A DNA stretch of 64,000 nucleotides. Source: Pontiella sp. GTDB lineage: Bacteria; Verrucomicrobiota; Kiritimatiellia; Kiritimatiellales; Pontiellaceae. The notes beneath the pieces were generated by a model, which made no database searches, was not told the DNA's origin, and saw only the letters and a program-made list of their open reading frames with translations. Positions 48,944-59,036 of the stretch are shown here, piece by piece; positions within the stretch are counted from its first letter, which is position 1; each line of letters begins with the position of its first letter. The DNA lies in contig JBNKHE010000009.1 in the NCBI GenBank assembly GCA_050290185.1, positions 64,001 through 128,000 of the forward strand. Reading direction: 5' to 3'. Both the position numbers and the translations under genes were made by a program.

Positions 48944-49053
48944 TTCGGGGATCGTCTTAATTCAAGGGCTAAAACCGGCCTTCCAGTCGGGGTTTATCGC
49001 TCGGATTTTAGGGTTTTCATAGGTTGGATGAACCCTGTAGGATGCGCGCCATT

Positions 49054-50082
49054 ATGGAACCTATCAATCAGCGTAAACTGGATCATATCAATATCGTGTC
49101 CGAGGATCGTGCCATCGATCGGCGGCAATATTATTTTGATCGTGTTCGGCTGACCCATCGCGCATTACCGGAACTGAACCTGGCCGAGATCGATCCCTCC
49201 ACCAGGTTTCTCGGGAAGGACCTCTCGTTTCCGCTGCTGATTTCATCCATGACGGGTGGGGCGGATGAGGAACTGGTGAAGATCAATCGCAACCTTGCCC
49301 GTGCGGCGGAAGCGGAAGGCGTGGCACTGGCGGTTGGCTCCCAGCGCGTGTTCCTTTCCGACACTGCTGCGCGTGAAAGCTTTGAGCTGCGGGAGACGGC
49401 GCCTTCGACGGTTCTGATCGGGAATCTCGGCGCGGTGCAGTTGAACTACGAAATGGGTTTTGCCGATTGCGAAGCCGCCGTAAAAATTCTGGATGCGGAC
49501 GGCCTTTATCTGCATCTCAATCCCTTGCAGGAAGCGGTGCAACCAGAGGGAGATACCGATTTTTCCAGTCTGCAAAACAAGATCGCCGTAATTGTGAAGA
49601 CGCTCAGGCAGCCTTTGATCGTCAAGGAGGTGGGCGCAGGAATTTCAGCGGTTGATGTTGAACGCCTTCTGGCGGCAGGCGTCAAGTATATCGATGTGGC
49701 CGGGAGCGGGGGAACCTCCTGGAGTATGGTCGAAAGCCGTCGAAGCGATCAGCCGGAGCTTGGAGAACTGTTCAGTGACTGGGGGATCCCGACTCCGGTT
49801 GCCCTGATGCAGATGAAACCCTACCGGCAGGAAATGACCTTGATTGCCTCCGGGGGAATTCGCAACGGCATCGACATGGCGAAGAGCATGGTTCTAGGCG
49901 CATCCCTGTGCGGTATGGCAAGGCCGTTCCTGAACCCGGCGCGCGAGTCGGCGGATGCTGTACGTGAAGTAATCCGGCGAATCAAGCGGGAGTTTGTTAC
50001 GGCCATGTTCCTGTTGGGTATGGAAAAGACCGAAAATCTAATTGGCAACGAGGAGCTTGTTCTTGATGAAGATTGGAATTGA
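49054..50082 (+). CDS. fni: Type 2 isopentenyl-diphosphate isomerase
   Basis: RKLDHI, HRALPE, ISSMTGG, VGSQR, HLNPLQE.VQPEGD, VKEVG.G, GGTSW, SGGIR. Confidence 0.95.
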   Translation: MEPINQRKLDHINIVSEDRAIDRRQYYFDRVRLTHRALPELNLAEIDPSTRFLGKDLSFPLLISSMTGGADEELVKINRNLARAAEAEGVALAVGSQRVFLSDTAARESFELRETAPSTVLIGNLGAVQLNYEMGFADCEAAVKILDADGLYLHLNPLQEAVQPEGDTDFSSLQNKIAVIVKTLRQPLIVKEVGAGISAVDVERLLAAGVKYIDVAGSGGTSWSMVESRRSDQPELGELFSDWGIPTPVALMQMKPYRQEMTLIASGGIRNGIDMAKSMVLGASLCGMARPFLNPARESADAVREVIRRIKREFVTAMFLLGMEKTENLIGNEELVLDEDWN

Positions 50083-51238
50083 TAGAATCAGTTTCTACAC
50101 CTCGCACTACTTTGTAGATCTCAAGACGCTCGCGGATGCGCGGATGGTTGAGTCGGACAAATATTATGTGGGCATCGGCCAGGAAACCATGGGGATTCCT
50201 TCGCCCGACGAAGATGTGGTCACTCTTGGAGCCAGCGCAGCCTGGCCCTTGATGCAGGATGGTGATTTAGAGGATGTCGAGCTCCTGCTGTTTGCGACGG
50301 AAAGTGGCATCGATCAATCCAAGGCGGCAGGTATCTATGTGCACGGGTTGCTGGAAATGGCACCGCGTTGCCGGGTGGTTGAGCTGAAGCAGGCCTGCTA
50401 CAGCGGCACCGCCGCGCTGCAGCTGGCCATTGGTTTTGTGGCACGCAATCCCGGCAAGAAGGCATTGGTGGTCGCTTCGGACATTGCCCGCTACGAGCTG
50501 GGCAGTCCCGGCGAAGCCACGCAGGGCTGCGGTGCCGTGGCCATGCTGATTTCCGCCGACCCCCGGCTGGTGGCGATTGATCCCGAGTGCGGTTACTATA
50601 CCGAGGATGTGATGGATTTCTGGCGACCCAACTATCGCTCCGAAGCCCTGGTGGACGGCAAGTATTCCACCATGGTCTATATCCACGCGTTGATTGAGTC
50701 GTGGAAACAGTATGCGGAGCAGACCGGACTTTCCCTCTCCGATTTTGACCGTTTCTGCTATCACATTCCCTTTACTAAAATGGCGGAAAAGGCACACCAG
50801 AAACTCTGCCGGAAATTCAAGGTCGAGATCGACAAGACGCAGATGCAATCCCTCCTTGAGGAATCGTTGCGCTACAGCCGCATTACGGGCAACTGCTACG
50901 CCGGTTCGATGTATGTTGGACTGGCCTCACTCCTGGATACGGCGGAGGAGGATCTGGCGGGTAAGCGGATTGGGTTCTACAGCTATGGATCCGGCTGCGT
51001 CGGGGAGTTTTTCAGCGGTGTGGTCCAGCCCGGATACCGCGATTTTCTCTATGCCGAACAGCACCGGAATATGCTGGATAACCGCACTGAACTGACGTAT
51101 CAACAATACGAAGATATCTTTAATTACGGGGTGCCGACCGATGGCGGGGAATATGTTTTCCCGCAATACAAGACCGGGCCGTTTCGGTTTTCGGGAATCA
51201 GTCAGCATAAACGCGAATACGAATCGTTGGTGGAGTAG
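50066..51238 (+). CDS. mvaS: Hydroxymethylglutaryl-CoA synthase
   Basis: IGID, ATESGIDQSKA, KQACYSGT, GEATQG, DFWRPNY, HIPF, GNCYAGSMY, SYGSG. Confidence 0.95.
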   Translation: MKIGIDRISFYTSHYFVDLKTLADARMVESDKYYVGIGQETMGIPSPDEDVVTLGASAAWPLMQDGDLEDVELLLFATESGIDQSKAAGIYVHGLLEMAPRCRVVELKQACYSGTAALQLAIGFVARNPGKKALVVASDIARYELGSPGEATQGCGAVAMLISADPRLVAIDPECGYYTEDVMDFWRPNYRSEALVDGKYSTMVYIHALIESWKQYAEQTGLSLSDFDRFCYHIPFTKMAEKAHQKLCRKFKVEIDKTQMQSLLEESLRYSRITGNCYAGSMYVGLASLLDTAEEDLAGKRIGFYSYGSGCVGEFFSGVVQPGYRDFLYAEQHRNMLDNRTELTYQQYEDIFNYGVPTDGGEYVFPQYKTGPFRFSGISQHKREYESLVE

Positions 51239-51241
51239 CTC

Positions 51242-52246
51242 ATGAAAGCGGTGGCGCCGGGAAAATTGATCCTCAGCGGCGAGCATGCGGTGGTTTACGG
51301 GAAACCGGCCATTGCCATGGCGATCGATCGCAATGCGGTCTTCGAGCTCACGCCGCAAGCCGGCGACCGGATTTCCTTTGATCTACCCGGAGACGCCGAC
51401 AGCGAATCGTTTACCCTGATGGCCCTGCGCGATTTCAAGCGACGTGTCGAAAAGAAATACCGTGAATTCCTGACGGGCGACATCGGCATAGGCTACGTGC
51501 TTGCTGCGCCGGCCGATCTTTTTCGCTTTGCATTCATCAACACGCTCGACGGTCTGCACCGGACGCTCGACTCAGGCATGGTGCTCAAACTGCGTTCCAG
51601 CATTCCCATGGGTTGCGGAATGGGGTCTTCTGCCGCTACCGTGTTGAGCGAGATCCGTGCCATGGGCCACTTTCTCCGCGTCGATTTCAAGCCCGAGTGG
51701 TATTATGAATACAGTCTTGAAGCCGAAAAGCTTCAGCATGGAAATCCCAGCGGGGTCGACTCCTACATTTCGCTCCACGGCGGTTGCGCCCGTTTCGAGC
51801 AGGGGCAGGCCCGTTCCATGGCTTTGCCGCGCATGAAGATGTTCATGGTGCAGACCGGGATTCCTGAATCAACCACCGGCGAATGCGTCATGGAGGTGGA
51901 GCGCAAGTTCCGCTCCAGCGCGATCTGGAGCGAATTTGAAGATGTGACTAACGCTTTCGAAGATGCGATTCGTAATAATAATGTTCAGAAACTCCATTGG
52001 CTGATCCGCGAGAACAATCGGCTGCTTTCCGCCATTGGCGTTGTACCACCTTCCGTCCAACGGTTTATTGCCGATATCGAAAAATGGGGCGGATCCGCCA
52101 AGGTGTGCGGGGCAGGCTCCGTAACGGGCGAAAAGGGCGGTATTGTCCTTGTGGTTTCCGACCAGCAGCCGACCGAAATCTGTCAACGATACGGATATCC
52201 CGTTTCGCCTGTGCGCGGTGATCCGCTCGGTACCCGAATCATTTAA
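51242..52246 (+). CDS. mvk: Mevalonate kinase (GHMP family)
   Basis: APGKLILSGEHAVVYG, PMGCGMGSSAA, HGNPSGVD, AKVCGAG. Confidence 0.85.
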   Translation: MKAVAPGKLILSGEHAVVYGKPAIAMAIDRNAVFELTPQAGDRISFDLPGDADSESFTLMALRDFKRRVEKKYREFLTGDIGIGYVLAAPADLFRFAFINTLDGLHRTLDSGMVLKLRSSIPMGCGMGSSAATVLSEIRAMGHFLRVDFKPEWYYEYSLEAEKLQHGNPSGVDSYISLHGGCARFEQGQARSMALPRMKMFMVQTGIPESTTGECVMEVERKFRSSAIWSEFEDVTNAFEDAIRNNNVQKLHWLIRENNRLLSAIGVVPPSVQRFIADIEKWGGSAKVCGAGSVTGEKGGIVLVVSDQQPTEICQRYGYPVSPVRGDPLGTRII

Positions 52247-52249
52247 CCC

Positions 52250-53182
52250 ATGGCCGACGTTGCCGCCATCACCGTTTCCGCACCCGGCAGCCTCATGTTG
52301 CTTGGAGAGCATGCCGTATTGCATGGCCATCGGGCTTTGGTGTGCGCGATCAACCGTCGCATAACCGTTCGTCTTTCCCCCTTGGAGGAGGATGAGGTGC
52401 AGATTGTTTCCGGGCTGGGAAACTATGAAAGCCCTCTGATGGAGTTGGTTGATCACCCGGCTCTCCGTTTCGTCATACAGGCCGTTCGGCAGCATGTCGA
52501 CCAGCTTCCCTCCGGGTTCGAATTGCGGATCGAATCCGAATTTTCAGCGGATATTGGCTTTGGTTCCTCTGCGGCGGTCACGGTGGCCACCCATGCCGCA
52601 ATTTTCAACTGGCTTCTCGGTGAGCCGCCGGAAAACGAACTGCTTTTCCACCAGGCATTGAAAACCGTTCATGCCGTCCAGGGCAGGGGATCGGGAGCCG
52701 ACCTAGCGGCCAGTGTATTCGGCGGGATCGTGAATTATACCACGGCGCCAACATTCCAGCCCATCGCGATTTCCATGCCGCTCAGCGCCGTGTATTGCGG
52801 CTATAAGACACCGACGCCAGAGGTGATTCTTAAGGTGGAACAGTTGCGGGCCGATAATGCGGACACGTATGAACGGATCTTTGCGGAGATGGATCGCGGT
52901 GCGGCGAATGCAATGGAATGTCTCCGCAATCACGATCTGCCCGGCTTCGGCAGGATTCTGAACCGCAACCAGCAACTGATGGATGAAATGGGAGTCAACA
53001 CACCGGAACTACAGGAAATCGTCGACGCTCTGCACGCCTGCCCGGATGTCTTCGGCGCGAAGATTTCCGGGTCGGGGATGGGGGATTGCGCTATCGGAAT
53101 CGGCTATGCCGACTTGAAGGATCTCGGCTATCCGGTCTACCATCTCGAAATTTCACCGAATGGATGCGAATACCATGACTGA
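52250..53182 (+). CDS. Second GHMP kinase, probable phosphomevalonate kinase
   Basis: SAPGSLMLLGEHAV, GFGSSAAVTVA, VQGRGSGADLAAS..GG, KISGSGMGDC; operon position. Confidence 0.75.
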   Translation: MADVAAITVSAPGSLMLLGEHAVLHGHRALVCAINRRITVRLSPLEEDEVQIVSGLGNYESPLMELVDHPALRFVIQAVRQHVDQLPSGFELRIESEFSADIGFGSSAAVTVATHAAIFNWLLGEPPENELLFHQALKTVHAVQGRGSGADLAASVFGGIVNYTTAPTFQPIAISMPLSAVYCGYKTPTPEVILKVEQLRADNADTYERIFAEMDRGAANAMECLRNHDLPGFGRILNRNQQLMDEMGVNTPELQEIVDALHACPDVFGAKISGSGMGDCAIGIGYADLKDLGYPVYHLEISPNGCEYHD

Positions 53183-53984
53183 GCAAAGTCTGAAAGAGCG
53201 TTTCTACGTCGTCATCTTCGAAGCCGACACCCCCGCGGGAAAGCTGTTCGATGTCCTGTTGTTCATGGCGATCATAATCAGCGTTGCTCTGACCATGCTG
53301 CAGAGCGTCAATCCAATCCGGGCCAGTCATGGAACGCTTCTCTTCGCTTTGAACGCCGGTTTCACGGGACTGTTTACGATCGAGTATTCCCTGCGGCTGT
53401 GGTGTGCCAGGAACACGGTCCGCTACGCCCGCAGTTTTTTCGGCGTGGTCGATCTGCTGGCGGTCCTGCCGTACTATATCGGCCTGATGATTCCCGGCAC
53501 GCGTTTCCTTGATGTCGTCAAGGTGCTGCGGATGCTGCGGATCTTCCGGGTGCTGAAAATGACGCAGTACGTGGGGGATGCGGACCTGCTGATGAATGCG
53601 TTGGCCTCGAGCCGTCGCAAGATCGGCATATTCCTCGTGGCCGTCATGACCATTGTGGTGATTGTCGGTTCGCTGATGTATGTGATTGAAGGGGAGGAGC
53701 ATGGTTTTACCAGCATACCTTGTGCGGTGTACTGGGCCATTGTAACGCTCACCACGGTCGGTTACGGCGATATTTCGCCGCAGACACCGGTCGGCCAGTC
53801 GCTGGCGGCTTTGATCATGATTCTCGGCTACAGCATCATCGCGGTGCCCACCGGAATCATAACCGCCGAGCTGGGTCTGGAAACGGCCCAACGCAAAAAT
53901 AACCGAACATGCAGTGCCTGCGGGCATTCACAGCACGACATCGACGCTTTGTGTTGCAAGCAGTGCGGAACCAAGCTGGGCTAG
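53175..53984 (+). CDS. Voltage-gated K+ channel family ion transporter with C-terminal Zn-ribbon
   Basis: S4 LRMLRIFRVLK, filter TTVGYGD, CSAC...C.QC. Confidence 0.92.
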   Translation: MTEQSLKERFYVVIFEADTPAGKLFDVLLFMAIIISVALTMLQSVNPIRASHGTLLFALNAGFTGLFTIEYSLRLWCARNTVRYARSFFGVVDLLAVLPYYIGLMIPGTRFLDVVKVLRMLRIFRVLKMTQYVGDADLLMNALASSRRKIGIFLVAVMTIVVIVGSLMYVIEGEEHGFTSIPCAVYWAIVTLTTVGYGDISPQTPVGQSLAALIMILGYSIIAVPTGIITAELGLETAQRKNNRTCSACGHSQHDIDALCCKQCGTKLG

Positions 53985-54934
53985 GCCGTTTTTTGGATCC
54001 GGCGGCGCAACCGCCAGCCTTCCATCGAAAATGCAATGCGGTCGAGCAGCGGAGCGCACAGGTTGCCGAGCAGGACGGCGTAGACGATCGCTTCGGTATA
54101 GTAGGTGAAGTGCCGGATCAGCGCATTGCTCACCCCCATGATGATGCCGCATGCGATTTTCCCGCTCTTGCTCATCGGTGTGGAGACCGGGTCGGACACA
54201 ATAAAGACCGCGCTGAATACCGTGGCGGCGGACAAGAGATTGAAGAGCGGCGAGTTACCGCACAAGGTCGTCGTGATCGCGAAGGACAATAAAAAGGCGG
54301 CCGGCGCCCGCCACGCCACGATGCCTTTCCAGCAGAGTACGATGCCGATCAGCAGGAGAATGACGGGAAAAGTTTCGCCGGGGCTGCCAGGCACCATTTG
54401 AAAGAGATCCTCCCAGGTTCCTTCAATAGGTCCAAACAGGAGGGTGGACCAATCGAGGGCATAGCCTTCTCCGCGGTAGAGTTCCTGCGGCGTGGCAGCG
54501 GATACGACATCCACGGTTGGATTTCCCCACGAGACCATATCATTGCTGTATGCCATCATCAGGAAAAACCTGCCGGCCATGGCGGCGTTTAAGCGCAGCG
54601 TTCTTTTCCGGTTCGGCAACTTCACGAACCATACCGCGATGAGGATGGCGTAGAGCATGGGCAGGAACGGCATATGGGGGGGGGCGCTGGCGGCGAGGAG
54701 TGCGGCGGTCAACCCTGAGCTGATGCCATTGAAGCGGATCTGCCTTCGTACGACCATTGCATAGACACCTTCGGCCACCATGCCGAGCAGGGTGTAGCCG
54801 ATCATTTGAAACACGAAGGACGAATGGTAGAGGATGCTGTAGATCGTGGCGGGCACCAGCAATGCCGCGAATGCCCAGTAGGCCATGGCGGAGGAGCGCG
54901 CGCCGATGCGCAGGAAGGGGCTGGCTAAAGGCAT
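53981..54934 (-). CDS. RnfD/NqrB-like membrane subunit
   Basis: LNAAMAGR, flavinylation-type DVVSAATP, PGSPGET, SDPVSTP, YAVLLGN..APLLD. Confidence 0.88.
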   Translation of the reverse strand: MPLASPFLRIGARSSAMAYWAFAALLVPATIYSILYHSSFVFQMIGYTLLGMVAEGVYAMVVRRQIRFNGISSGLTAALLAASAPPHMPFLPMLYAILIAVWFVKLPNRKRTLRLNAAMAGRFFLMMAYSNDMVSWGNPTVDVVSAATPQELYRGEGYALDWSTLLFGPIEGTWEDLFQMVPGSPGETFPVILLLIGIVLCWKGIVAWRAPAAFLLSFAITTTLCGNSPLFNLLSAATVFSAVFIVSDPVSTPMSKSGKIACGIIMGVSNALIRHFTYYTEAIVYAVLLGNLCAPLLDRIAFSMEGWRLRRRIQKTA

Positions 54935-55953
54935 TTCTTTCCCTCCTTCAGCGTTTGGACGATGGGAATGTCCGATGGGCAGACGGCAGAACAAACGCCG
55001 CATAGGAAACATTCGGTCATTTGGGCGCGGAAGGCCTCTGACCGGGTGTTGTTTTTTGCGATGCGCTCAACCAATGAATAGGGATGCAGACCAAGCGGGC
55101 ACGACGTGTTGCAGGCCCCGCACCGTATGCAGGGCCGTTCATTCGATTCAGCCTCGGTCCGTTCCAGGATGATCAGCGACAGGGTGGTTTTTTTTACAGA
55201 ATCTCCCGGTTGAACTTCAGTGCCCATCATAAGCCCGGAGTCGGCAATAAGGTGCTTGGTTGCATCGAAGGGCAGTTTAAAGGCAGCAATGATATCTTGA
55301 ATGGGACGCCCGACCGGGACGATGATATTTCTATAAAACCGCACCGAAGGCATGGCCAGGGTCAGCGGCCGCTCGACAACCGGGACCCCGTCGATGATCG
55401 CCCGACCAATGGCGCGAAGCGATACAACGTTTTGAACGAGGTACCCCAGCTGGTAGGGGCGAATGCCTGGTGGCGGGATCTTTCCCTCGAGCTTCTTGAG
55501 AATCAGTTTTTCCGCTCCGGCGGGATAGCGGTTGGAGCAGGTAGTGATTTCAAAATCAGGATAGAGATCGCTGAGTATTGGAAGATGTTCCGGATGTCTC
55601 TGAACCGCGAGAATCACTCGTTTCGCGCCAACCGCCCTGGCGCTGGCCTTGGCGCCGGCAATGACCCATTCGTGGTGATGCAGCAGAATCGTCTGGTCGA
55701 TGGTAACGCCGGGTTCGCATTCAACGCCATTGATGACCAGCGTATGGGCCGCAGTGTTTGTGCGTATCTTGACCGAGGAGGGGAAACCACTGCCCCCCAT
55801 GCCGACCAATCCGATCTTATCGAGGAAAAGGGAGAAGGCTTCCGCATCGCTTGGTTCATAATCGGCGCAAGGTTGCTCCGGAGTGGCGAAGAGGATCTCC
55901 GGCGGATCAAAGTTCGGGAGTCCGGCCCAGTCGATTTTGATACGGCGGAGCAT
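54925..55953 (-). CDS. RnfC-like FMN/2x[4Fe-4S] subunit, N-terminally shortened
   Basis: GLVGMGGSGFP, INGVECEP, YPAGAEK, QNV, CIRCGAC...CP and CFLCGVC...CP. Confidence 0.88.
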   Translation of the reverse strand: MLRRIKIDWAGLPNFDPPEILFATPEQPCADYEPSDAEAFSLFLDKIGLVGMGGSGFPSSVKIRTNTAAHTLVINGVECEPGVTIDQTILLHHHEWVIAGAKASARAVGAKRVILAVQRHPEHLPILSDLYPDFEITTCSNRYPAGAEKLILKKLEGKIPPPGIRPYQLGYLVQNVVSLRAIGRAIIDGVPVVERPLTLAMPSVRFYRNIIVPVGRPIQDIIAAFKLPFDATKHLIADSGLMMGTEVQPGDSVKKTTLSLIILERTEAESNERPCIRCGACNTSCPLGLHPYSLVERIAKNNTRSEAFRAQMTECFLCGVCSAVCPSDIPIVQTLKEGKKCL

Positions 55954-55956
55954 GGT

Positions 55957-56466
55957 CTACGGCTTCTTGGGCCAATCGGGTTTGACGTCCATTTCAAGGG
56001 CGGTCCGGCGCGCCATGTAGTTCAGGTAGCCCGTGGTTTTGATGTGGTAACGGGTCGCCCCGCTCACGCAGTCTACCGCCGATTTTTCGGCATGCGGATC
56101 GAACGGTATATTCTTGAATTGCTTCAGGATGGATTGAACCTCCCTGCGGTCCTTCGGCTTTTTGATTTTTAAAATATCGGGGAACACCACTTCACGAAGT
56201 ACGAATCCGTTTTCCGTTTTGTCGACAATGACGATGCCGGTGATGGGCTTGAATGATTCTATCTCGCGCACGGCAATGCCTGTTTTCGGCATGCCGTCTT
56301 TATCGTATGCAATGTACATGCGCTCAATGGTACGCGAATAGGGATCGTCCGAAATCCTGACATCCAGACCTGCCGTGGCCTGTTCGATGACCGCGGCGGT
56401 TTCATCCGCATGGACTGCGGCGCACGCCGCCAGCAGAATGCAATATATGAATGTTCTAAATCGCAT
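55957..56466 (-). CDS. Secreted FMN-binding (RnfG/NqrC-like) protein
   Basis: Signal peptide ending VHA; VDCVSGAT flavinylation motif near the C-terminus. Confidence 0.75.
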   Translation of the reverse strand: MRFRTFIYCILLAACAAVHADETAAVIEQATAGLDVRISDDPYSRTIERMYIAYDKDGMPKTGIAVREIESFKPITGIVIVDKTENGFVLREVVFPDILKIKKPKDRREVQSILKQFKNIPFDPHAEKSAVDCVSGATRYHIKTTGYLNYMARRTALEMDVKPDWPKKP

Positions 56467-56500
56467 GGTGATTCTCGTATGCCCGGTTGTAATGCAATAG

Positions 56501-56530
56501 GGAACCGTCCCGCTCGAACAGGACGGTTCC
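56501..56530. terminator. Intergenic hairpin after the porin gene (partial terminator or stabiliser)
   Basis: GGAACCGTCC-N10-GGACGGTTCC perfect 10-bp stem; weak U tract on the minus strand. Confidence 0.5.
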
Positions 56531-56550
56531 GTGGTAAATAGTGGTGTATC

Positions 56551-57789
56551 CTACTGGAATATCCAGCCCATGCCGAGATTGAACTGGTTGTTTGGATCCG
56601 CTCCCGCCTCGTCGTAGCGGAACTGGTAGCCCGTTTTGAGGACAAACTGCTGGGTCAGCGGAACGTTCACGCCCACGGTCAGAACCGTGCGTTCGTTGTC
56701 TCCACTTTGGGCCGCATTGGAGGGAACCTGGTATTGCGTGTCGTATTTTTCGTAGCGCACAAACGGAATGACATCCGCCTCGGCCAGCTTGCCGCTCTTG
56801 CACAAGTCGGGCAGCACGCTCACCCCGCCTTCAAGATACCAACCCAGGATTTGGTCCGCTACATCCTGGCCGAATGCATTGTTGAGCGCTGCTGCATCGG
56901 AATTAAATCCCTGCGCCAGAACGCCTCGGCATTGAAAGCGAGAAAGATAGTACTCAAAATCGACACAATACATCCCGAAGTCGTTATCGATTCCATTTCC
57001 GCCGCCGCCATCGGCGTTGTCGGTGCCTCCGTAGTAACCGGACAGACCTAACCGAAGATCCTGATCGGCTTCGATCAGCGGATAGAAATCGATACGGCCG
57101 GTAAAGGCCGGATCACCCAATCCGCTGCGTTCTTCGGTGCGTCCGCCGCGGATGCCTTCTGCACCGTCGAACCCGGATCCATCAAGGCCTCCCACGACAT
57201 AGGCCTGATAGCTTAGCCAGCTGAAAGGGGAGCCAAACAGCCCCGCGCCTTCCGGAAACCAGGTGGTGGGGATAAGGTCATGGGTAAAGCTGGGCCGTTC
57301 CACGCCCAGAAACAGAGTCGGTTCATGATGCTGGTTGATGATGCCGATCGGCGCAAGCAGGCGCCCGACGCGAATGTTGACGGCGTCGTTCAGGAGGAAA
57401 TCAACATAGAGTTGCTCTATGGCGACTTCGCCGCCGGCCCCATCGGTTACGAATGCATGTTCGAGTTCGACCTCCGAGGTCAGTCGGATCCAATCGTTGA
57501 AGTCGTAGCCGGCATAGACCACCAATCGGTGGATGTCGAATACGCTGTTGCCATTCTCAACGAAGTTTCCGTGGATCTCTCCGTAGCCGCCCAGATGTAG
57601 CTTGTCGGCTGGCGCAACGGTACCGCCAAGATCCATTTGCTGGCCCTTGAGCGCTGCAATCTCCGCGTTGGCTTCAGCCATCTTCTTTTCGAGCACCTGG
57701 ATCCGGGCGTCATCGGCAGCGAATGCCGTTCCCGCCAACGCAACTGCGACAGCCACTGCACCAAGCGGTTTTATATTTACAAATATCAT
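56551..57789 (-). CDS. Outer-membrane beta-barrel porin with N-terminal coiled coil
   Basis: Signal peptide (AFA), coiled coil, GGYGE...DIHR...ELEHA, aromatic C-terminal strand GMGWIFQ. Confidence 0.8.
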   Translation of the reverse strand: MIFVNIKPLGAVAVAVALAGTAFAADDARIQVLEKKMAEANAEIAALKGQQMDLGGTVAPADKLHLGGYGEIHGNFVENGNSVFDIHRLVVYAGYDFNDWIRLTSEVELEHAFVTDGAGGEVAIEQLYVDFLLNDAVNIRVGRLLAPIGIINQHHEPTLFLGVERPSFTHDLIPTTWFPEGAGLFGSPFSWLSYQAYVVGGLDGSGFDGAEGIRGGRTEERSGLGDPAFTGRIDFYPLIEADQDLRLGLSGYYGGTDNADGGGGNGIDNDFGMYCVDFEYYLSRFQCRGVLAQGFNSDAAALNNAFGQDVADQILGWYLEGGVSVLPDLCKSGKLAEADVIPFVRYEKYDTQYQVPSNAAQSGDNERTVLTVGVNVPLTQQFVLKTGYQFRYDEAGADPNNQFNLGMGWIFQ

Positions 57790-57840
57790 ATCCTCGATCT
57801 CCTTGTTTTATATTGTTCCACATGAAAAGCGCAGGATAAT

Positions 57841-57888
57841 TTAGTTGCTCCTAACAAAAGTCAATCCGATTGTTTAGATTTAATCTAA
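57841..57888. promoter_or_regulatory. Two TTAG-N6/7-CTAA palindromes, candidate DtxR/MntR-family metal-repressor sites
   Basis: TTAGTTGCTCCTAA (57841) and perfect TTAGATT-T-AATCTAA (57874), flanking a minus-strand TTGACT. Confidence 0.5.
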
Positions 57889-57929
57889 TTTATGACGGGG
57901 TTTCGCTCGTAAAAACCGATGTATCAAGG

Positions 57930-57958
57930 TTGACGGGGTTTTGGGCGTTGGGTACTGT
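57930..57958 (+). promoter_or_regulatory. Sigma-70-like promoter of gap
   Basis: TTGACG-N17-TACTGT. Confidence 0.55.
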
Positions 57959-57974
57959 TCCCGCTCATTTTTAA

Positions 57975-59012
<1,038 letters not shown>

Positions 59013-59036
59013 GTATCGATCGATACACTTCGATTC

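Follow-up and report, generated by a model that had tools for sequence, protein, structure and literature searches.

The closest described counterparts of the locus analysed here are the NQR/RNF-like systems, a one-branch, two-subunit type that has already been published (Meheust et al., 2021, PMC8238504; Huang et al., 2024, bioRxiv 10.1101/2024.03.13.584918) and for which one-way outward electron flow was put forward as a proposal (PMC8238504). In the Rnf complex itself, RnfD is described as carrying electrons only, with Na+ moving through RnfA/E, and in A. woodii RnfD T156 carries flavin mononucleotide (FMN) and N123 and D249 hold riboflavin (PMC11889175). The present analysis concerns a locus in the window, the whole 64,000-nucleotide stretch of Pontiella sp. 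DNA, in which four minus-strand open reading frames (ORFs; 53981-57789) encode, in order, a porin, a secreted protein with a flavinylation motif (G'), an RnfC-like protein (C') and an RnfD-like protein (D'). Judged by gene order and sequence, the conserved unit is the three genes G'-C'-D', without rnfA/E/B of their own. We read this trio as a one-way, non-pumping wire from NADH to the periplasm that in Pontiella would probably reduce Fe(III) for uptake, and assign this reading a probability of about 0.4.

The four coding features are as follows.

55957..56466, minus strand: G', 169 amino acids (aa), secreted, RnfG fold, VDCVSGAT motif with predicted flavinylation at Thr138
54925..55953, minus strand: C', 342 aa, RnfC-like NADH/FMN subunit with PF01512 and two [4Fe-4S] motifs
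53981..54934, minus strand: D', 317 aa from the likely start, RnfD-like, PF03116 (E 9e-50), DVVSAATP motif with Thr148
56551..57789, minus strand: porin, 412 aa, 16-stranded outer-membrane barrel of OprP/OprO-like predicted fold, acidic, an independent cassette

A preliminary description of this DNA had reported four co-oriented genes with these motifs, ending head-on against a K+-channel gene and accompanied by no rnfA, rnfE, rnfB or apbE. ORF calling and Pfam/NCBIfam scans agreed with it on each point, and the stop codon of D' was found to overlap that of the channel gene.

Cofactor residues and distribution of the trio

The source genome (3.6 Mb, 95.5% complete) encodes a complete rnfA-B-C-D-G-E operon on contig C1 and nqrA-F on contig C5, together with a single apbE, also on C5 and unlinked to the operon. 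A split canonical Rnf, which the preliminary description had named as an outcome that would refute it, is thereby ruled out: the six subunits stand together on another contig and not in the module. C' and D' are, on sequence grounds, extra paralogues and not missing pieces of Rnf, because a full rnf set is present, because they share only 31% (C') and 27% (D') identity with the genome's own RnfC and RnfD, and because their scores fall under the NCBIfam cut-offs (232<246 for TIGR01945 and 115<207 for TIGR01946). An assembly artefact was likewise ruled out, since positions 53000-59014 were tiled by overlapping contigs of a second DNA run with zero differences.

All cofactor sites of the proposed chain are intact, as had been supposed. 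C' carries the FMN/NADH site and the two [4Fe-4S] motifs of RnfC at the level of sequence motifs, its FMN/NADH motifs and eight cysteines being kept in 36 of 36 aligned rows. It is short, as first noted: no match to the RnfC_N barrel domain was found in the window protein, and this domain has been lost in Pontiella and in family f4 and retained in deeper members. In NuoF of complex I a glutamate favours NADH over NADPH, and the corresponding position of C' keeps it in 33 of 36 rows. The alignment of D' with A. woodii RnfD (9eri_D) retains the threonine for covalent FMN (Thr148) and the riboflavin ligands Asn116 and Asp248; across the family these are conserved in 41/41 (Thr), 41/41 (Asn) and 40/41 (Asp) rows. 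D' forms a clade with support of 100/100 in a tree of 31 rows, and a quick tree built from 22 rows gives C' a clade with a Shimodaira-Hasegawa-like approximate likelihood-ratio (SH-aLRT) value of 100, with few outgroups (12 RnfD/NqrB and six RnfC rows, respectively) and long branches flagged in both. No close D' was found in 72,556 plasmid records (best 29-33%).

G' had been described as a secreted FMN-binding protein. The motif holds and the N-terminus looks like a secretion signal, and the protein gave no Pfam or NCBIfam match; a search of the genome with FMN_bind (PF04205) returned RnfG and NqrC only and missed it. A profile search for G' yielded 64 clusters at 50% identity, and the threonine of the flavinylation motif is kept in 59 of 60 aligned members. 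The AlphaFold model of G' has a predicted local distance difference test (pLDDT) value of 93.5, and its best match in a structure search was RnfG (7zc6_G; Z 11.0, root-mean-square deviation 5.0, 150 aligned; VIA), followed by Borrelia BB0365, two more RnfG chains and NqrC chains. In Foldseek the RnfG/NqrC rows were weak, with RnfG first (best E 0.014); Atlas matches stayed under 0.9, and no solved structure was matched by the G' sequence profile. On its modelled fold G' is a divergent RnfG, one of a flavinylation-motif family that lies outside Pfam and would have been overlooked by Pfam-based surveys. Its N-terminus resembles a short cleavable-type signal and not the RnfG anchor (19-residue hydropathy 1.67 versus 2.52), a call based on hydropathy and sequence pattern; the window protein has a lipobox-like stretch, and 58 of 60 family members have none. 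G' looks soluble and periplasmic rather than membrane-anchored. The genome has apbE, an extracytosolic motif of the [ST]GA[ST] type is present, one G' locus (L046) adjoins apbE, and flavinylation of both G' and D' is very likely.

Of the order's 89 genomes, 41 gave G', 35 gave D' and 34 gave both; one genome (G054) has lost G' and the beginning of C' through an insertion. The 53 distinct G' loci comprise 34 with an intact trio (26 without the porin and eight with it), seven with G'-D' only, five with G' alone, three with porin-G' and no intact C'D', and four cut by contig ends. A conserved four-gene operon is thus ruled out, the four-gene order occurring in eight of the 53 loci. The trio itself spans five families of the class (f1, f4, f16, f17 and f25) and metagenome contigs, and D' was detected in ten of 301 genomes across the phylum, all of them Kiritimatiellia. 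Genes of the rnf/nqr A/E/B type lie at three of the 53 loci, each time as part of the ordinary rnf or nqr operon of that genome. The absence of the Na+-pumping pair from the module, stated in the preliminary description, holds.

Seven streamlined Pontiella genomes of 0.9-1.7 Mb have D' directly after G' (G007, G008, G009, G013, G041, G042 and G048; loci L020-L024, L053 and L054). No RnfC/NuoF-family gene was found in any of the five tested, and apbE was present in four of these five. The D' proteins of all seven have lost the N- and C-terminal RnfC-binding loops, and the N-terminal motif is kept in 34/34 other genomes. With C' lost, D' would need another donor, perhaps quinol. The G'-D' form may represent a minimal unit kept under strong genome reduction.

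The porin, its operator and the flanking genes

Sixteen strands were present in the AlphaFold model of the porin (pLDDT 82), which Foldseek matched to OmpM1, OprP and OprO (E<=1e-12), in agreement with a barrel of the OprP/OprO type. Porin_O_P (PF07396) scored weakly, below its cut-off (16.6 versus 20.9 bits), and is found on 20-74% of the members of the porin's Atlas neighbours. Unlike OprP and OprO, the protein is acidic, with 48 Asp and Glu and 20 Lys and Arg in residues 59-412. The following predicted elements lie around it.

57873..57889, minus strand: box 1, a 17-bp palindromic, Fur-like putative operator, likely iron-repressor site of the porin
57836..57864, minus strand: porin sigma70-type promoter, downstream of box 1; its position is kept in porin-linked relatives
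57841..57854, minus strand: box 2, a short palindrome between the -35 and -10 elements of the porin promoter
56501..56530, minus strand: 13-bp hairpin after the porin stop, between porin and trio, with a weak U-tract; terminator-like in relatives

Promoter-like sites were no commoner in the promoter scan than in shuffled sequence (3 versus 2.7). Box 2 is presumably similar to DtxR-type operators. Box 1 is one base off a perfect 17-bp palindrome and was equalled by none of 2000 intergenic shuffles, so the metal-repressor-type box of the preliminary description is real as a palindrome. The genome has one fur gene and one DtxR-family gene, and a copy of box 1 with four mismatches covers the -10 region of its feoABC promoter. 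In a genome-wide scan the top rank was circular, the matrix having been built with the window's own site, and on inspection three of the four next-best matches were non-iron genes. In relatives, box 1 precedes flavodoxin, TonB-receptor/FecCD and imelysin-linked genes. Of the 34 distinct porin-type leaders (what remains of 37 rows without three reverse-strand duplicates), 22 have the box upstream with at most four mismatches. It resembles the Riemerella Fur box, whose arms and spacing it shares (PMC5609570). Box 1 is thus shared with iron-uptake genes, a fur gene is present in this genome, and the porin is probably iron-controlled through this Fur-like predicted operator, by Fur or the DtxR-family repressor. 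Of the proposed metal regulation, the part at the porin promoter is supported by iron-regulon marks, and the box follows the porin and not G'-C'-D'. Porin homologues also lie between feoB and feoC or in a flavodoxin-feoB operon, and head FMN_bind-PepSY-ApbE clusters in other Verrucomicrobiota. The porin is a separately inherited cassette, probably turned on under iron starvation.

The 94-nt spacer between porin and G' folds at -27 kcal/mol, and the hairpin was not called in a terminator scan. In this window the T-tract is weak, the -35 element of the G' promoter is unrecognisable and the long leader of the porin is gone; given the weak T-tract and the lost -35, read-through from porin into G' is plausible in this genome. 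The window porin and trio group apart from other porin-linked loci, hinting that porin and trio were joined a second time, independently.

Several further features were observed around the porin family. A conserved structured leader of ~160 nt lies upstream of the porin in relatives (L035:252-413 and L008:10075-10237; also L108-L117). It was found in 32 of 89 genomes, every one of Pontiella, and is absent from the window and from genome G000, whose many small contigs with differing initiator-tRNA copies suggest some foreign short contigs in the bin. In an alignment fitted to the structure, 93% of cells are paired and 12 pairs vary on either side together; none of 500 shuffles did as well. The leader precedes porin, AraC-flavodoxin-radical-SAM and TonB-receptor/FecCD operons, mostly behind box 1, and is a candidate iron-regulon riboswitch or small RNA. 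Rfam gave nothing credible for it even at E<=10, and at the gathering score no family in the window or six related loci. Box 1 and the leader also stand ahead of a gene for a small unannotated protein (L111:4939-5289 and L115:36-353), downstream of an imelysin-type gene; it is a candidate new iron-regulon gene. At seven loci (L010, L083, L086 and L119-L122) a porin paralogue is followed by a canonical FMN_bind gene and then by a membrane protein of 142-164 aa with several histidines; unmatched in Pfam, it may be a small cytochrome b in the place of PepSY. In genome G055 a porin orthologue is split into two frames (L078:5911-7126), and an intact trio lies elsewhere.

Two flanking genes provide context.

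53175..53984, plus strand: K+-channel-type gene (PF00520), adjoining the module in some relatives only
58017..59012, plus strand: gap (GAPDH, glyceraldehyde-3-phosphate dehydrogenase), outside the module, its divergent neighbour in most Pontiella loci

One RNA run gave only gap-like reads at the locus. Beyond the channel gene, window positions 49024-53182 hold a mevalonate-pathway operon (type-2 IPP isomerase, HMG-CoA synthase and two GHMP kinases, from inspected translations), which adjoins the module in several relatives too. A UbiE-like methyltransferase gene stands beside G' in three distant loci (L043, L063 and L064), two of which also encode a 332-336 aa protein without a Pfam match. M48 peptidase, methyltransferase, MMPL and thiL neighbours occurred at few loci each and were not counted as parts.

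Proposed electron flow and rival explanations

The three parts match the stretch of Rnf that runs from NAD(H) to the periplasmic flavin. In the proposed chain, NADH would reduce FMN and two [4Fe-4S] clusters in C', from which electrons would reach riboflavin and the covalent FMN (Thr148) of D' and then the covalent FMN (Thr138) on soluble periplasmic G'; the unlinked ApbE would flavinylate both threonines. G' would pass the electron to ferric iron let in by the porin, which would be regulated separately and repressed by iron; uptake of the resulting Fe(II) would fall to FeoB. With RnfA/E/B absent, there is no return path to ferredoxin. Electrons moving inward to NAD+ go against the membrane potential and require a donor of very low potential, and the potential would favour outward flow; an NADH-fed, energy-spending outward wire is preferred for this reason. 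Taken separately, independence of the trio from RnfA/E is likely, outward flow is fairly likely, and iron has about an even chance of being the acceptor among outward cases in Pontiella. A more far-reaching account is doubtful: out of half of Rnf, Pontiella may have put together anew a chain for reductive iron uptake, made up of an acidic porin under iron repression, a soluble ferric reductase with the RnfG fold and a wire of RnfC and RnfD that spends NADH and membrane potential to supply the periplasm with low-potential electrons. Streamlined relatives may have cut it to an RnfD-RnfG unit working without Rnf, Nqr or RnfC, which would show RnfD as a free-standing transmembrane electron carrier.

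A number of observations weigh against the iron-reducing wire. Every trio genome checked also has RnfA/E or NqrD/E, and G' occurs without D' in seven of 41 genomes (one at a contig end), so that G' may take electrons from elsewhere. A competing proposal, noted in a review, places a Na+ path through NqrB/RnfD (PMC12174285). The streamlined genomes G007 and G041 speak for the wire: no RnfA/E, NqrD/E, NqrA, RnfC/NuoF or COX1 (heme-copper oxidase) was found in them and G'-D', porin and FeoB are kept, in what are sister genomes and drafts of 79% and 87% completeness. On the opposing side, G009 (87% complete) and G042 (61%) keep G'-D', and neither porin nor FeoB was found in them. FeoB is nearly universal (80/89 genomes) and does not discriminate. 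In 13 of the 41 G' genomes the porin is placed immediately upstream of G', and in 18 it lies elsewhere in the genome; it was not found in the other ten, including all six of family f4, and no trio locus outside Pontiella has it. Of the outcomes that the preliminary description had named as refuting it, an unconserved porin link is partly borne out. Box 1 lies upstream of G' in one of 52 regions and in none of the porin-less loci, and porin-linked relatives retain both a T-tract-bearing hairpin and the promoter that G' has in porin-less loci; for these reasons the trio looks constitutive. In favour of a link, porin and G' within Pontiella are both present in 31 genomes, G' only in four, porin only in six and neither in 12 (p 7e-5), and of 26 genomes in which the porin comes without its own FMN_bind gene 22 carry D', versus three of eight with one (p 0.017), in tables that were hand-tallied, treat non-independent kin as separate and are inflated by draft gaps. 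When 21 canonical Rnf loci are arranged in a tree, the genomes with neither gene fall mostly, not solely, into a single part. A functional tie of porin to trio within Pontiella is suggestive only.

In the main rival account, the same outward wire would be a constitutive general outlet to any periplasmic acceptor at hand, such as sulfur, quinone analogues, ferric citrate or oxidised proteins, balancing fermentation or keeping the periplasm reduced, with the porin a mere neighbour inserted at the gap locus. The promoter of G' without an iron box, the lack of the porin outside Pontiella and the module's divergent position beside gap all fit this account, as do Pontiella desulfatans and Pontiella sulfatireligans, which encode G' and reduce sulfur and ferric citrate as well as anthraquinone-2,6-disulfonate (AQDS) while fermenting, the route being called unclear by the authors who described them (PMC7356697); in P. 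sulfatireligans the trio is present and the porin is not adjacent. We nevertheless consider a general outlet rather unlikely, given the co-occurrence of porin with G', the complementarity of D' with the porin's own FMN_bind gene, the same reductions in K. glycovorans (PMC7356697), and the failure to find G' or D' in most of family f4 or in the two genomes that come from other families, f2 and f3. The four-gene conduit as it was first drawn, co-regulated across the envelope with G' docked on the porin, is highly improbable. It gains from the plausible read-through in this genome and is at odds with the rarity of the four-gene order, with the terminator and internal promoter of linked relatives, and with a porin that usually stands alone or with another FMN_bind gene.

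Two further accounts change the partners or the direction of the trio. Its proteins may act as alternative C, D and G subunits, taking RnfA/E/B or NqrD/E over from the canonical operons and forming a second ion-pumping complex: they cover half of the six Rnf subunits and have every cofactor residue, an A/E-type pair exists in every whole-trio genome checked, and G' persists without C'D' in several genomes. The 27-31% identity to native subunits and long separate clades, the short cleavable-type signal of G' in place of the RnfG anchor, and the failure to find an A/E-type gene in G007 and G041 (G'-D') or in G319 (G'; 94% complete) make this unlikely. Alternatively, G' may take electrons from a periplasmic donor and pass them through D' to C' and NAD+, or to quinone where C' was lost, as in NqrB. 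The forward direction of Rnf is from G to D to C (PMC11889175), and the C'-less genomes keep UbiA-family genes and, in five of seven, Nqr-type genes. The energetic barrier set out above applies to the branch ending in NAD+, and no conserved periplasmic dehydrogenase was found beside the trio; an inward wire is very unlikely.

Comparison with known systems

Relative to the Rnf complex RnfABCDGE (9ERI, 7ZC6, 8AHX; PMC11889175), C', D' and G' are homologues or fold-mates with the cofactor residues, and the module differs in having no RnfA/E/B, and so neither ferredoxin input nor an A/E Na+ pump. RnfG is a membrane-anchored PF04205 protein, whereas G' has no PF04205 match and a signal-peptide-like N-terminus. 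A natural pump-less half of Rnf would allow a direct test of the disputed movement of Na+ by RnfD/NqrB. Another partial Rnf/Nqr arrangement was seen on the Ilyobacter polytropus plasmid pILYOP01 (L129), where the annotation shows an RnfD-FMN_bind-NqrD-NqrE-2Fe-2S cluster and lists no RnfC/NqrA gene in the 2.7 kb upstream. With the PepSY-like iron-assimilation flavinylation clusters (PMC8238504) the locus shares its porin family, which heads porin-FMN_bind-PepSY-ApbE and porin-FMN_bind-feo clusters; their canonical FMN_bind and PepSY/cytochrome genes are absent here, and G'-C'-D' stands in their place. Literature searches returned, among the papers covered and supplements aside, no account of a G-C-D module. 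In the cultured Pontiella that carry the genes, it is a concrete candidate for the reduction of ferric citrate, sulfur and AQDS.

The nearest parallel remains the NQR/RNF-like type. Both represent one branch of the Rnf/Nqr semicircle, with an NqrB/RnfD-type membrane subunit beside an extracytosolic RnfG-type flavoprotein, and for both one-way transfer from NAD(P)H to the outside, sometimes tied to iron uptake, is proposed. As far as the cited accounts go, the NAD-binding donor domain there is of NqrF type and forms one protein with the membrane subunit (PF03116 with a C-terminal PF00175), whereas D' is a 317 aa protein with PF03116 only and an RnfC-type Fe-S flavoprotein, encoded separately, serves as donor; the RnfD flavinylation threonine is lost there and kept here (41/41); the G-like subunit is membrane-anchored there and looks soluble here; and those systems occur mainly in Actinobacteria and the Candidate Phyla Radiation (CPR), the present module in Kiritimatiellia. 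By analogy, then, G'-C'-D' would work like the NQR/RNF-like systems while lacking their defining features, and may be another one-way flavin wire, built independently of the type with the NqrF fusion.

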